Shown here piece by piece: positions 7,599 through 13,500 of a stretch of 64,000 nucleotides of DNA (its first letter is position 1; the number at the start of each line of letters is the position of its first letter). This DNA is from Sphaerodactylus townsendi (taxonomy: Eukaryota), in contig NC_059425.1 in NCBI RefSeq assembly GCF_021028975.2, forward strand, positions 149,916,001-149,980,000, in the 5' to 3' direction. The translations under genes were made by a program, and so were the position numbers. A model generated the notes under the pieces. It did not search any database, was not told where the DNA came from, and was given only the letters and a program-made list of their open reading frames with translations.

Positions 7599-10500
7599 GT
7601 AAGTGACTTTTGTTCTGTGTTTGTATTTTAAATGGGGGCGTGACACTCCCGCCTAAAACTTCCTCTGGAAGTTTTACCTTTATCAACTTCCATTAACTAT
7701 ACTTAACTATTCTTACTGTACTACTCTTAATAACTGTCTATCACTAATACATAATATTGACTATGCTAACTGTAAACTTCTATGCTAACTATAACTATAA
7801 ACTTCTAACAATCTTGATTGCAGAATTCAAACTGCTTGTGGTTCACTGAAGTTCAACGCTCAGGATCTCTCAAGTGTCTGTCTCCTCAGCCATTGGGAAT
7901 CCATGGGCTGGATGAGAAAAACACATGTCTATCTGGTAGGCAGACTTGTGCCAATGCAACAAGTACTGAGTTCCAGTATTCCCATCGGGAATGTTCAAGT
8001 TGTTTCAGAGGCTGATCACAGACCTCTATGTCTTGGGTTGACTCTCTCTGCAAACACTTTCTATGGATAATGACAGGTGTGGTGGCTAACCTCTCTTGCG
8101 TGTTTGGGTTCAAAATGGATTTTTCTGGCCATAATTTTTGCTCTTGAAGAACACTCTGAAGTTTAGAACAGAGTCGTATATGATCCACATAATCTAGCAT
8201 CACATGTACTAGTTTTCCAGAGAGATGCTTTAGCCATGCTACAGTTATCACTTCACAAAACATATTGTCTTTAATAGCAGTAGAGGTCCATTCTTCAAAC
8301 ATGTACCGGGAATGCTTGTCTCCGTGAAAACAGTCGAAGCAACGGTACACATCATACCCGTAATTCAGTAACATTCTTGACATGACTTTGGCACCAAATT
8401 GTCGCAGCAAGGAGGCAATTTCATAGGAGTCATGTTGAACAGCTATAAATAAAGAAGAATCTCCATCTTCATTCTTAAAATCAGGGTTAAAGTTATTAAG
8501 TAGCAGAAAATGGACGTTTTCAACAAGACATTTATCCACCGCTACAAAGAGAGGAGTCTCTCCTTTCATATTTGTCTGTTGCCACACTGTGGGGTCTGAA
8601 GCTTTCAGAGTTATTTCTAGAATATGTTTGTTGAGTTGAGCTGCTGCATCATGTAAAGGAAGGCAGCCATCTCCATCTTGCTCCTGGAAAGCTGAACTGT
8701 GGCTTATCAATTTCAGCAAAGTCTCTGCTACACCTGTCGAATATCAGTAATTATCTTTATTTTAACCTTACGCACTCTGTGGTCCTCTCCTGGAACTACT
8801 TCTATCACAATGGCCAATGGCCAGAACCTCCATGGAGATTCTTTTTCCTTCATCAAGACCACGTCTCCTACTTGAAGATCTGGTTGGGGTTCTTCCCATT
8901 TGCTTCTTTTTTGTAACAATGGCAAATATTCTCTCTTCCATCTCTTCCAGAATGCATTAGCCAAAGACTGCACCTGTTGCCATTGTTTGTAGTGTACTCC
9001 TTTTAAATCTGAGGCTATAGTTGTATCGGTCCACGCATGTGATGGATTAAAAAGCCATTTGCAGCCTTCCTGCTTTAGAAATTCTTTTGTGTTTCTGAGA
9101 GAGGATATTTTCATTGTTTGTGTTGACCTGTTATTTTCTCGAACTTGTCCAGAACAACATTCGATTCTGTGACATGTCTGGAAAGCCTCTCAGAATGCCA
9201 ACTGTTTACTATGAGATCATCTTCTGGATCTGTGATGTTTTCTATCTCCTTTCCTGGTGCATATCTCTCCTCTTGCTGCACAGAGGATGTAACAATCAAC
9301 TTAGGCATCAGATCATTTATCTCAGATTGTGATTCAGTACCATCTCTTCTCACTCGCCTTGATTTTACCGCGAGCTGATTTTTGCTTTTCTGTGCAAGAC
9401 TTCATTTTTGTGCCTGCTGATGGTCACAGGAGCATCAGGTACACTGTTATCAGATGAATTACTGATGGATTCATCATGTTCTAAATACTGGGTTTTTTCA
9501 TCTTCATAAACTGACATAGCAGTACTATGCAAGGGTGCATCAAACCTCTCATCACACCTTTCTCCTAGTTCACTCCCCGGAACTTTCAGGTGCTGTAATG
9601 CCATAACGTGGTTGTTTGGCAACTTGCTTCTTGGCTGGGTAAAAGCCTGCTGTGGAGTTGATGATACTGCAGGAACAGTTGTCATCTTAGGCCAGTCAAA
9701 GAGCCATTTGGCTCGCCCGCCTCCCTGCCCGCTTGCCCCCACTCCCCCACCCGTTTTCCCACCCACTCGCCGCTTGCTTGCCCCCCGCCTGCTCGCTTGC
9801 TCCCCCCGCTTGCTTGCCCCCCCGCTCTTGCTCGCTCCGCTGCCCGCCCGCTCCCCCACCGCTCGCTTGCCCGCCCGCCCCACTCACTTGTCCACTCGCC
9901 CCCTGCTCACTCAACCGATCGCCTCCCCACTCACTTGCCCGCCCGCCCGCCCACTCACGCTCGCTTCCTCCCCGCTCACTTGCCCTAACGTGGTTGTTTG
10001 GCAACTTGGTTGTTTGGCAACCGTTTTCCCACCCACTCGCCGCTTGCTTGCCCCCCCTCCCCGCTCGCTTCCTCCCTGCTCTCTTGCCCGCCCGGCCCTG
10101 CTCCGCTCGCTTCCCTGCTTGCCTCGCTGCCTTAAATTTCTGCCCGGGCTTGGGCAGCCATGCCGGGAGCCGCACAAGAAGCATCGAAGAGCCGTTTGCG
10201 GCTCAGGAGCCGCGGGTTCCCGACCCCTGTCTTAGGCAGTTCTGGTCCCCGTCTAGGAACTGCAGGATTGAAAGTATATGCTGCAACTGGAGTGGTGTAT
10301 GTTGACCATGTCACGTTGTGTGAGCTTGTTGGCCAATCTTGCTTCTCTTTGGCTTGAGGTAGACTGTTCCACAGATCTGCCTGTCGGCTGGTCACCTCTG
10401 GTATCACCACACTAGGCTGTGGTTGAAAGTAAGTTGCTTGGTGTTGCACTTCTGGCCTCTGAAACATTGACACAGGTTGCTGCTCTTTGGGCATCTGGAA

Positions 10501-13500
10501 CATCGATGTAGCTGGTTGCTGCACTTTGGACATCTGGAACACTCGTTCTGCTGATTCTGCAGCTGCCAGCTGTTCTGTCACTCTGAATTCTTCCGAATCA
10601 GCACTCTATTTCTTTAGCGCAGAAGGTAAATAAACTCTCTTTAAGGCCTTGCTGCAAAACTTGAGCTCTCGTCATCAGCTCTTCTGCCTTTGCTGTTTGT
10701 TTTAGTGTTGACAAGACTGCTTCTACTTTTGCTTGTCGAGCCTCTTCCTGGACTTTCAACTGGGCTTGATGGGCCTGATGGACCACTTCCTGGGCTTTCA
10801 AATGAGCTTGTTCTTCAATGATTTCTTGTTTTCTCTTTAAGCAATCTACTTGTTTTGCAGCAACCGCTGCATCAGCTTTGGCTTCCAGGATCTTCATTTC
10901 CATAGCCAATCTTTGGGAACGACAAGAGGCACTGCTATAATTTGAGCCTGACCTAGTGCTTCTTGTTCTGTGGGATGTGTGGGAAAACGAGGATTTAGTT
11001 GCAGATTTACTGCCAAACTTGCTTGGCACTTCAGGTGTAACCTTTCTTGGAATGTGAAGTGACATTCCTCTTCCTATGCCTCTGAATAGGGATGCAGTGT
11101 CTACAGTTGTTTTGGTGGATTCTTCTTCTTACGCGTACTGGATCTCTGATTGTTGACTTGCTTGCAACCCCTGCAACTTGCTGGATAAACCACACATAAT
11201 GTTGTTAAAGAAGTTTGCCTTTTCTCTCTGATCCTTCTCTATCTTTGTCTTGATATTCAAGGCTTCTGACGTATTCATACGCTCTAGGAGGGAAATCGTA
11301 ACGCTTAGCTGACCTTTCCAAAAAAGGTAATGTTGTTGTAAAATCTCCTTACAACTTAATATTTCTTCTTCTTGTGCGAGGCAATTTCCAGATTGATTAA
11401 TAGCTAGGAGGTCTTGCCACGCCTCAGAGCATCTGAGTTGCAATACATTCACCTGCTCTTGCAAATATGCTAACATTTTGGTAGTGGGCTTTTTATTTCT
11501 AGCATTGCTTTGTGAAATAGAGCTTGTTGGCTCTGAGTGAGTTTCTTCTCTTTCTTACATTGCCGGTGCTCCTAGCAAATAAGACTTCAATTTTCCTATG
11601 CCCAGCTACTTTAGGGCTTGTAGGAACCAATCTCTTACTGTTGCTAGGAGACTTTCTTTGTTCCTTTACTGCAAAGGCTCCCTGCCTTGTTTCTCACCAA
11701 CTGAAAACTTTCAATTCGGCCTTTTGGAAACTGGGAACATTCAACTTAGACTCAAGTTAGACTGTTCTGCTTCCCAGGTGGTTATTTAGGTGCCCTGCAC
11801 CCGGCCAAAGCAGAATGTAAGGCTCACTGACTCAGTTAACAGTTCAATACTTAAAGCTTTAATTGTAACAACGTTGACATACCCTGACTCCTCCCAGGTC
11901 TAACTAAATAAAGGTTACTTTGTTGCAGAAACATTCTGGAGTCTGGAATTTATTGACGTAAATACTGTGAGCCTATAACATCTATGACTGTCTAACATAA
12001 ATGCTGTGAGTCTATAACATCTTTGACTGTCTAACTTGTTGCTGTCACCCAGCTTCCATTGGCACCTAACTGCCAAAATCAGACGGGTTGCTGGGTAATA
12101 ACTGCCATAGAACACCAGCCCTAGGGCTTCTTAAAGGGACAGAACTAAATTAGATTCCCTCCCATTGAATACTATACAAAACATAGCTAAACCCATACTA
12201 ACTGTGGGGAAACTAAATCTTAAAGGGGAAATAAACAAAGGTCTTGTGGGGGCATGACAGACAGCACACGTTTAGGAGATTTTTGAAGACAGGAGCTGTG
12301 ACCTTGGGTAACTGCTTTCAGCCATCCAGCTAACAGAGGGAACCTGATCATTCAAGCAGGGAGATTCAAACACTGAGTGCATGTGCTCTGTGAATCTGGA
12401 GGAACCCCCAAATGCTTTTGATGTGGTACTGGGGACATAATTTAACTTAAGGCTCTTGGCCTTTGTTTTTTTGAAGCAAGTTTTTCCATTCGTTATGACT
12501 GAGAAGATATTTAGCACTGGCACAACCCTGTCTATTCAAGTGGACAGCAAAATGGTAAAAATCTCAGAGAAAACGTGCAAAATTAAAGAAGTTATGCTCA
12601 ATTTATATAATTTTATACAGGTCAAAAGTGCAGAGCTCTTCTTAGTGCAGAACTGTAATTTTTTTTAGCATGGGTCAGAGAGCAGTCCACCACCTAATAC
12701 TTTGGGCCAAACTGGATGTGTGTTTTAAAAGAACTTACTTAGTCAGTGCATGTACATTCTCACAATGGGCGAAATAACACCTCTCCTGGTTGTTTCAGGT
12801 GGCCAAAATGGTGTACGGCTGAAGCCCTCCCAAAGTGTTATGGTCGTGACTGAATCAGGCTGTTGCAGCAGTTTGAAAATCTGTCCCCAGCTGCTGTCAT
12901 CTGACTGAAAATATTGAGAATTGGGTCAGAAGAACCCTTATATAACTAATTTAGAATGTAACCTCTAGTTCACTTGGTCCACAGTTAAGCTTTTGCCCTT
13001 GGCGCATTTTGAGGGACTGAGCTGTGTCTCAGCAGGTTTGGGGTCTGTTTAACCGTCTTTTTTTCATGCTTGCAGAATTTTTTGGTCATGGTTTGGCTTG
13101 CAACTGGAGATTCTGAAAGAGCCAAATCCAGATTTGTCATAGCTGGCCAAAATGTATCCCAACACGCGTCTAGCTTTGGGAATATGAAAAGGCTACTTTA
13201 TGTGTAGAATATGGCTGTGTGTTAATACTCTTGACTATATAGGGATAAATAGGATTACATACCTTCTTCCCCATAGGTTCATATAGTACTATTTGACCTT
13301 TGACCACCCATTGTTTTGCAGGGCTGTTTAATAAGGTGCTGTTTTTCAAGGCCTCATTTTGATAGAAGATGTTTGGTTTCATTCTCAGTGAAAACAATCT
13401 TGGCAACAGAAGTTTATAAACGGGAAATTGCATGTGTATGAGTTGAGGATTTTCTAAAATTTTATATTTGGCACAGGCAAATGGTGAGGAAACATCATGA

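Follow-up and report, generated by a model that had tools for sequence, protein, structure and literature searches.

Acutely transforming retroviruses carry a defective genome in which a spliced host cDNA is fused to gag, and they depend on a helper. The capture of host mRNA by long terminal repeat (LTR) elements is likewise known: the sections available from PMC5131818 describe BATUMI, a Drosophila Pao element that contains a chimera of two genes, and BEL18_AG, with a retrocopy in mosquito, and the supplement of that paper lists further vertebrate cases that could narrow the novelty of any new example. Mammals have no BEL/Pao elements, and in Anolis these are abundant; the passages available from the paper that records this make no mention of host-gene capture (PMC3118150). 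Here we describe a decayed BEL/Pao LTR element of the gecko Sphaerodactylus townsendi, on the minus strand at 12259-7633 of a 64,000-nucleotide stretch of contig NC_059425.1 (the window), which contains pieces of two spliced host mRNAs, ASB14 and CENPU, and belongs to a recently mobile family. An earlier examination of the same letters, the sequence-only reading, had noticed the element and its ASB14 passenger; it was right that BEL/Pao elements are missing from mammals, but their abundance in a lizard was already on record.

The gecko family resembles the cases of LTR-mediated retroposition in those sections of PMC5131818 in its partial spliced mRNAs within discontinuous LTR elements, its microsimilarity at the joints, its multi-gene chimeras and its secondary retroposition. 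It differs from them in being a squamate family of at least 60 copies, about 9 to 1 over passenger-free relatives, and in combining an older and a younger capture with more than a dozen recombinant structures and a systematic in-frame fusion of Gag to neutral passengers; sections 8 and 9 of the paper, as available, do not mention frame-keeping at element-passenger joints. Maize Bs1 is also a non-autonomous LTR element with several host mRNA pieces that was later amplified, but it is described in the same sections as having 1-5 copies, 1/3 passengers out of frame and a reported functional hybrid protein (PMC5131818), whereas in the gecko family all shared joints are in frame and protein constraint is unseen. 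The likeness to gag-onc retroviruses lies in the defective genome and in the spliced cDNA fused to gag, and probably in helper dependence; unlike them, the gecko family has no env and no sign of infection or of selection on a passenger protein. Open-access text, a scope that excludes Repbase and Dfam, yielded no description of the family and none of a squamate BEL/Pao element that had captured a host gene. The new part is the scale and the frame-keeping; the basic capture event was already known, including in insect Pao and BEL elements.

In the window copy the ASB14-derived stretch occupies 8758-8122 on the minus strand. Its best protein match is gecko ASB14 (92% identity, E 3e-123), and among the 120 matches listed all the named ones but two are called ASB14, in agreement with the sequence-only reading. 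The host ASB14 locus lies at G000:C3:54.140-54.162 Mb, where the first eight coding exons give P0001 at 527 of 527 residues. Against this locus, with exon boundaries for the junction calls set by hand, four introns have been lost at exact splice sites, namely 2/3 (956 nt), 3/4 (98 nt), 4/5 (13,595 nt) and 7/8 (546 nt), as had been anticipated. A first block (8383-8758) holds the last ~22 nt of exon 2, exons 3 and 4 and the start of exon 5, and a second (8388-8122) holds the end of exon 7 and exon 8 without the SOCS-box exon; an internal deletion joins exon 5 to exon 7 across a 6-nt repeat. Clean exons of the window copy match the host gene at 95-99%, and ASB14 pieces across the family are about 95-99% identical to it. 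In the host gene itself (L028), at G000:C3:54141737, the exon 2 donor reads TT instead of GT, and the exon 7 donor is GC, either through assembly error or as a variant. Decay of the host gene was considered and found unconvincing: at sites that are otherwise invariant it departs 8 times, and three other lizards 6, 3 and 2 times.

The sequence-only reading identified the ASB14 passenger correctly but overlooked a second host cDNA at 9588-9074, also on the minus strand. This comprises CENPU coding exons 2 (part) to 6 and part of exon 10, exon 5 having been identified from the translation; four introns are lost, and the piece carries one stop and small deletions. In the frame of a relative, CENPU gives a Pfam match above the cut-off (PF13097, E 3e-14) and a best protein match to gecko CENP-U (E 2e-91); the exons of the host gene are at G000:C10:30.993-31.003 Mb. 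Another copy, L032, retains CENPU coding exons 2-10 with eight introns gone, and the CENPU pieces of the family are 82-92% identical to the host gene. Residues specific to this host are present in both passengers (14/27 for CENPU, 17/20 for ASB14), so both were captured within its own lineage, and capture from a foreign species was ruled out on these counts. Two public gene models annotated as uncharacterized proteins, P0122 and P0124, correspond to Gag-CENPU fusion frames of element copies.

The junctions fall on microhomologies of 5-11 nt: 6 nt for integrase-ASB14 and for RNase H-ASB14, 7-9 nt for pol-CENPU and 10-11 nt for ASB14-integrase, with a 5-nt microhomology at the integrase-exon 2 joint that is specific to the window copy. 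The microhomology at the common integrase-ASB14 joint spans the exon 2/3 splice joint, which is present in mRNA only, and the template was therefore mRNA. Exact intron loss, microsimilarity at the switch points and the absence of a poly(A) tract or a duplication of their own place the passengers among LTR retrocopies as defined by Tan 2016, and the 53 loci that have one joint in common likewise qualify as secondary retroposition. The passengers were likely acquired by reverse-transcriptase template switching, in agreement with the model in PMC5131818.

It could instead be supposed that L1-type retroposition placed the ASB14 piece in a dead element, or that the layout is a misassembly, and we regard this as extremely improbable. 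In its favour, the window-specific integrase-exon 2 joint was unseen in the four public runs compared with window 7560-9700, and these repeats are noisily assembled. Both passenger ends, however, are microhomology joints inside coding exons, unlike those of an L1-type processed pseudogene, and the ASB14 ends of the window copy have neither a poly(A) nor a separate target-site duplication. Furthermore, the same joints turn up at dozens of loci that have target-site duplications of their own, and in independent data. Contigs of runs X2 and X7, which bear two different organism labels, contain the family integrase-ASB14 joint, X2 also having the joint of exon 4 to the tail; of 577 reads from RNA run X12, under a third label, 19 show the integrase-ASB14 joint in a loose end, and 9 cross the exon 4-tail joint. 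Read depths in these runs do not represent copy numbers. Mate directions in X12 are about equal, so that no strand or start can be read from them, and an intronic or DNA origin is possible. Run X13 gave 53 reads, whose loose ends mostly match host mRNAs. RNA reads across the junction, one of the checks proposed at the outset, were thus found for the family joints but not for the joint of the window copy, and for the family the retrocopy or misassembly explanation is already refuted. Capture inside a BEL/Pao element stands as originally proposed.

A DNA search of the genome gave 40 scored matches among 107 candidates, and a tight-pattern search found 53 joints of integrase to ASB14, 6 of RNase H to ASB14 and 6 integrase ends free of passengers, with 0 matches to reversed-pattern controls. 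The pattern counts are lower bounds: copies B, L064 and L073 escaped them, and the window joint differs and falls outside the 53. Perfect 5-bp target-site duplications flank 18 of the 22 copies with two scorable LTRs, and in these 22 the LTR pairs differ by a median of 0.65% (range 0-6.7%). The family has been recently mobile and the window copy is one decayed member of it, which bears out the suggestion of a non-autonomous, multi-copy family, with at least 53 other copies sharing an integrase-ASB14 joint.

The structures observed include gag joined to ASB14 running from its 5′ untranslated region (UTR) to exon 8 (L033); a diverged gag-pol with CENPU and without ASB14 (L088); CENPU, integrase and ASB14 exons 3-5/7-8 (L032 and the window copy); CENPU, integrase and ASB14 exons 3-4, the commonest form; gag or pol joined directly to the integrase end and exons 3-4; and reverse transcriptase (RT)-RNase H with part of ASB14 exon 4. 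Passenger-free full-length copies with the same LTR also exist, all of them interrupted in the assembly, and these are the possible helpers that had been postulated. The pol of the passenger-free copies is nearest to an Anolis carolinensis protein (71%), then to fish and amphibian elements (about 50-53%). Passenger-free and pol-bearing relatives have the gag-protease-RT-RNase H-integrase order of BEL/Pao elements, with a weak PF03564 match, a CCHC-like motif, PF00078 with YVDD, PF05380 (E 3e-45), an integrase zinc finger, a weak PF00665 match and PF18701; the protease gave no Pfam match. The TG...CA ends, polypurine tract and 5-bp duplications are those of a BEL/Pao LTR element, the window copy supplying the 5′ LTR and the polypurine tract. 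Only 196 nt separate the integrase end from the 3′ LTR in the passenger-free copy that was measured, leaving no env-sized region. A second, diverged BEL/Pao subfamily (L075, L076, L072 and L067), about 70-80% identical, is the source of gag, pol, RNase-H-region and tail pieces in the chimeras; the occurrence of these pieces shows that the two subfamilies recombine.

It is almost certain that a non-autonomous BEL/Pao family captured spliced CENPU and ASB14 cDNA and spread. In the scheme we propose, a co-packaged CENPU mRNA would have been captured first, into the diverged subfamily, and an ASB14 mRNA running from the 5′ UTR to exon 8 later; we infer this order from sequence comparison. Repeated recombination with full-length elements would then have shuffled and trimmed both passengers, with RT and integrase provided in trans by full-length relatives. 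The nearest thing observed to the original ASB14 capture is L033, a single copy at G000:C13:13.129-13.134 Mb, in which ASB14 extends from the 5′ UTR to exon 8 with seven introns lost and the gag frame continues through the ASB14 UTR into the ASB14 start codon.

The reading frame across these joints was followed in a first batch of 39 copies and a second of 31 further loci, many of them indel-rich and only 3 with an open reading frame (ORF) of at least 400 codons. Homologous crossovers between subfamilies, tandem-repeat changes in gag or leader and nested insertions were excluded from the junction tallies; A, L067, L072, L075 and L076 served as references or are diverged-subfamily copies, and four PF05380 loci without the family LTR (L065, L066, L071 and L074) were dropped. 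All 12 of the 12 non-homologous joint classes common to at least two of the 39 copies are in frame by majority. The counts are 27/27 for integrase-ASB14 (the window joint being separate), 18/18 and 5/6 for CENPU-integrase, the same 18/18 plus 3/5 for the CENPU internal deletion, 7/12 for pol-CENPU exon 3, 4/5 and 3/4 for pol-CENPU exon 2, 2/2 for pol-CENPU exon 6, 4/5 plus one noisy copy out of frame for RNase H-ASB14, 4/4 for gag-pol, and 2/2 each for ASB14-integrase, integrase-RNase H, gag-integrase end and ASB14 exon 5-7. Microhomologies of 6-8 nt between these sequences are in frame in a share of 0.39-0.43, and under this null 12/12 has a probability of about 1e-5 to 5e-5. A 13th shared class, for which the frame was predicted in advance, was in frame in 3/3 copies of the second batch, where the known classes gave 17/20 plus 1/3 (integrase-ASB14) and 7/10 plus 3/5 (CENPU-integrase). 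The 18 single-copy junctions, tallied by hand, comprise 12 in frame, 4 out of frame and 2 unreadable. Across the family ASB14 is therefore not in an env-like slot, as had been thought, but fused in frame to the single gag-pol frame; in L044 one frame of 937 codons runs through gag, CENPU, integrase and ASB14.

An in-frame fusion might be kept for the protein it encodes. For substitutions, each derived allele was counted once, the reference being either the host coding sequence or a single copy without passengers; transitions were weighted, and recombination was ignored. Among alleles in at least three copies, nonsynonymous and synonymous changes number 12:4 in ASB14 (ratio per site, pN/pS, 1.18), 19:7 in CENPU (0.98), 29:10 in the integrase end (1.07) and 33:11 in the gag start, gag pN/pS being 1.14 and 0.88. 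In stretches of protease, RT and RNase H recently derived from full-length copies the values are 0.26 (protease/RT-side pol, 17:24) and 0.13, so the method is able to detect constraint. Shared amino-acid changes in the passengers are neutral, with pN/pS about 1.

A Gag-CENPU-integrase-ASB14 fusion protein that serves the element or the host, for example by chromatin or centromere targeting or by interference with a ubiquitin ligase, is accordingly improbable. Its case would be that the joints are in frame, that junction-spanning reads occur in an RNA library, that the public annotation contains Gag-CENPU gene models, that passenger-bearing copies stand at 53 to 6 against passenger-free integrase ends, and that CENPU shows a mild excess of fixed changes against the host (41 nonsynonymous to 8 synonymous, pN/pS 1.84, where the test was for a deficit only). 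Against these points stand the pN/pS values in both passengers, the loss of the SOCS box in all copies examined, and the erosion of the passengers themselves: depending on the sub-lineage, ASB14 is cut back from the exons 1-8 of L033 to exons 3-4 or to a fragment of 138 nt, and CENPU is lost entirely from three multi-copy variants. The neutral ratios and progressive deletion also leave the comparison with the cargo of an acutely transforming retrovirus unsupported. Nor does the open frame of the window copy testify to selection on ASB14, as the sequence-only reading had suggested. The estimate of ~280 codons was close, at 285, but the frame is not ASB14 alone, since it includes integrase and RNase-H-region fragments (8131-7907), and it is even out of register with the upstream integrase: the integrase-exon 2 joint is in frame, but a private 1-nt deletion lies immediately downstream.

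We consider it probable, instead, that the family has been selected for one translatable frame, host cDNA acting as filler and not as a working protein. This is suggested by the joints and by the distribution of stop codons. In single copies 31 stops were counted against 451 missense changes, compared with 0 against 188 among shared or fixed changes (Fisher P 4e-5); for the passengers, integrase end and gag start only, the figures are 8/150 and 0/144 (P 0.008). No stop codon is common to three or more copies. Some single-copy stops may be assembly errors that inflate this contrast. In 8 passenger copies, which represent several structures, the distance from the end of the last long frame to the 3′ LTR is 204-240 nt; in a passenger-free copy it is 196 nt.

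A purely passive history, in which passengers and frames are unselected and the pattern reflects a switch bias to shared codons and a few lucky source copies, is unlikely but deserves serious weight. Microhomologies are somewhat frame-biased, as the null share shows, and some joints lie on shared peptides. In 14 of 17 young Drosophila LTR retrocopies the longest ORF is in the parental frame, which the sections available from PMC5131818 ascribe to youth, and individual copies are blurred by assembly noise. Such a history does not readily account for the finding that every one of the 13 shared classes is in frame by majority, one of them as predicted beforehand, for the 0 stops beside 188 shared missense-level changes, or for the CENPU of L032, which has accumulated about 40 element-side amino-acid changes over 230 codons with no stop.

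Several observations nonetheless weigh against selection for a translatable frame. Some classes are in frame by majority only, pol-CENPU exon 3 reaching 7/12 plus 1/3, where the exceptions depart from the rest at an A-run or next to one; for gag-integrase end the count was 2/2 in the first batch and 0/2 in the noisier second; and the joints of L069 and L128, two deletion copies that lack passengers, are out of frame. Three stop alleles are each found in two copies, one of them a CENPU stop that the window copy shares with L088. The frame ends about 1.4 kb from the scored LTR position in L033 and L090, and 36-315 nt away in three diverged-subfamily copies, L088 being unscorable. In gag-pol, 33 one- or two-base frameshifts occur in at least three copies. 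The carriers of frameshifts at 18 exact positions share 6.0 single-nucleotide variants, against 6.6 for random sets and 10.3 for the control; since they are no closer kin than random sets, the recurrent frameshifts were treated as assembly noise. Some copies have LTRs less than 0.3% apart yet 14 frameshifts per kb, which is also consistent with noise in the consensus. This noise, at 0-29 frameshifts per kb, limits the analysis, and a small-indel test of frame-keeping was uninformative owing to recurrent homopolymer-type indels.

Under selection for a translatable frame, RNA in which the frame ends far from the 3′ LTR would be lost, so that only in-frame chimeras spread. The likeliest routes of loss would be nonsense-mediated decay (NMD) of RNA with a long 3′ UTR, or a failure of translation-coupled packaging. 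Retroviral RNA with a long 3′ UTR is an NMD target (PMC2925335). Counting against the proposal, defective elements of yeast Ty1 move efficiently in trans, without cis-preference, in the part of PMC3945221 available, which also states that Ty1 RNA is packaged from the translating pool. The behaviour of Ty1 therefore fits a requirement for translation and speaks against the element requiring Gag of its own.

There is a little better than an even chance that the family is best seen as defective-interfering-like, outbreeding its helpers after swapping essential genes for cDNA filler that keeps a Gag-initiated frame open to the 3′ end. Defective RNAs of the mouse hepatitis coronavirus need translation and not the protein, in the sections of PMC4395149 available, and in the gecko family, similarly, an open frame appears to matter and the encoded sequence does not. 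The gecko elements differ from those RNAs in being integrated LTR retrotransposons whose filler is host cDNA, and the case for them rests on evolutionary, not experimental, evidence.

In the window copy the 5′ LTR (11763-12259; 497 bp, TG...CA) is matched by both LTRs of other copies. The gag remnant (10230-11560), a mosaic of the two subfamilies, is broken by a stop at codon 2, one more stop and a frame-breaking deletion near 10604, in keeping with the stops and frameshifts first reported there. Small pieces of gag and pol that come from the diverged subfamily and are connected in frame (9580-9692) precede CENPU, which is followed by the C-terminal part of integrase (8754-9094; PF18701, E 7e-26), 97% identical to passenger-free relatives and with a private in-frame 222-nt deletion at 9033/9034. 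Beyond ASB14, a short integrase fragment and, after it, a piece of the RNase-H region (PF05380) from the diverged subfamily (7907-8131) are both in the ASB14 frame, which stops 240 nt before the 3′ LTR; the 3′ untranslated tail and polypurine tract lie at 7646-7885, and a 13-bp stub of the 3′ LTR at 7633-7645, where the full LTR continues in other copies. All these features are on the minus strand. The passengers thus lie inside the replication signals, as had been stated, as far as the 5′ LTR and the polypurine tract followed by TG are concerned, but only 13 bp of the 3′ LTR remain, and for this reason the target-site duplication of the window copy is unscorable.

The 10 nt at the primer-binding position (11753-11762, minus strand) lack a tRNA-type TGG start and match, in reverse complement, LTR positions 222-231 (about window 12029-12038), upstream of AATAAA at LTR position 306. 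The 10-mer follows 35 of 44 GTCT-followed LTR ends, with its complement at most 520 nt upstream in 31. This complementarity may reflect self-priming of the kind known from Tf1. ARAGORN found no tRNA genes in the window.

A 537-bp insertion found in the window copy alone (9693-10229, with no strand assigned) is a later, nested miniature inverted-repeat transposable element (MITE), labelled hAT-like because it is flanked by an 8-bp target-site duplication (9685-9692 / 10230-10237). GC-rich MITE-like elements with related ends lie at 9693-10229 and about 6050-6630, and short inverted-repeat or dispersed elements at 23284-23838, 52185-52353, 54795-54958, 62174-62257, 19619-19696 and 49233-49310 are typical of squamate non-autonomous DNA transposons. 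The BEL/Pao element itself lies within a host protein kinase gene, which we take to be CILK1/ICK of the MAK family; it occupies the first coding intron in antisense orientation, 33 nt below the splice donor of the first coding exon (7498-7599, plus strand). The truncation of the 3′ LTR to 13 bp next to this donor is possibly a splicing-sparing deletion, or an assembly fault.

The family amounts to a natural experiment, in which over a dozen independent joints and two neutral passengers separate the need for an open frame from the need for a protein, a distinction drawn so far mainly from the defective genomes of RNA viruses. That a captured frame is intact within a mobile element does not show the gene to have been co-opted, and annotation already lists Gag-CENPU fusions as genes (P0122 and P0124). 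Selection for a translatable frame predicts that the LTR chimeras able to spread are the in-frame ones, which would bias LTR-driven exon shuffling to ready-made fusion ORFs. If the family is indeed defective-interfering-like, the element possibly primes itself without tRNA, and the gecko genome would provide evidence that BEL/Pao RNA needs end-to-end translation, or escape from NMD, in order to be copied.

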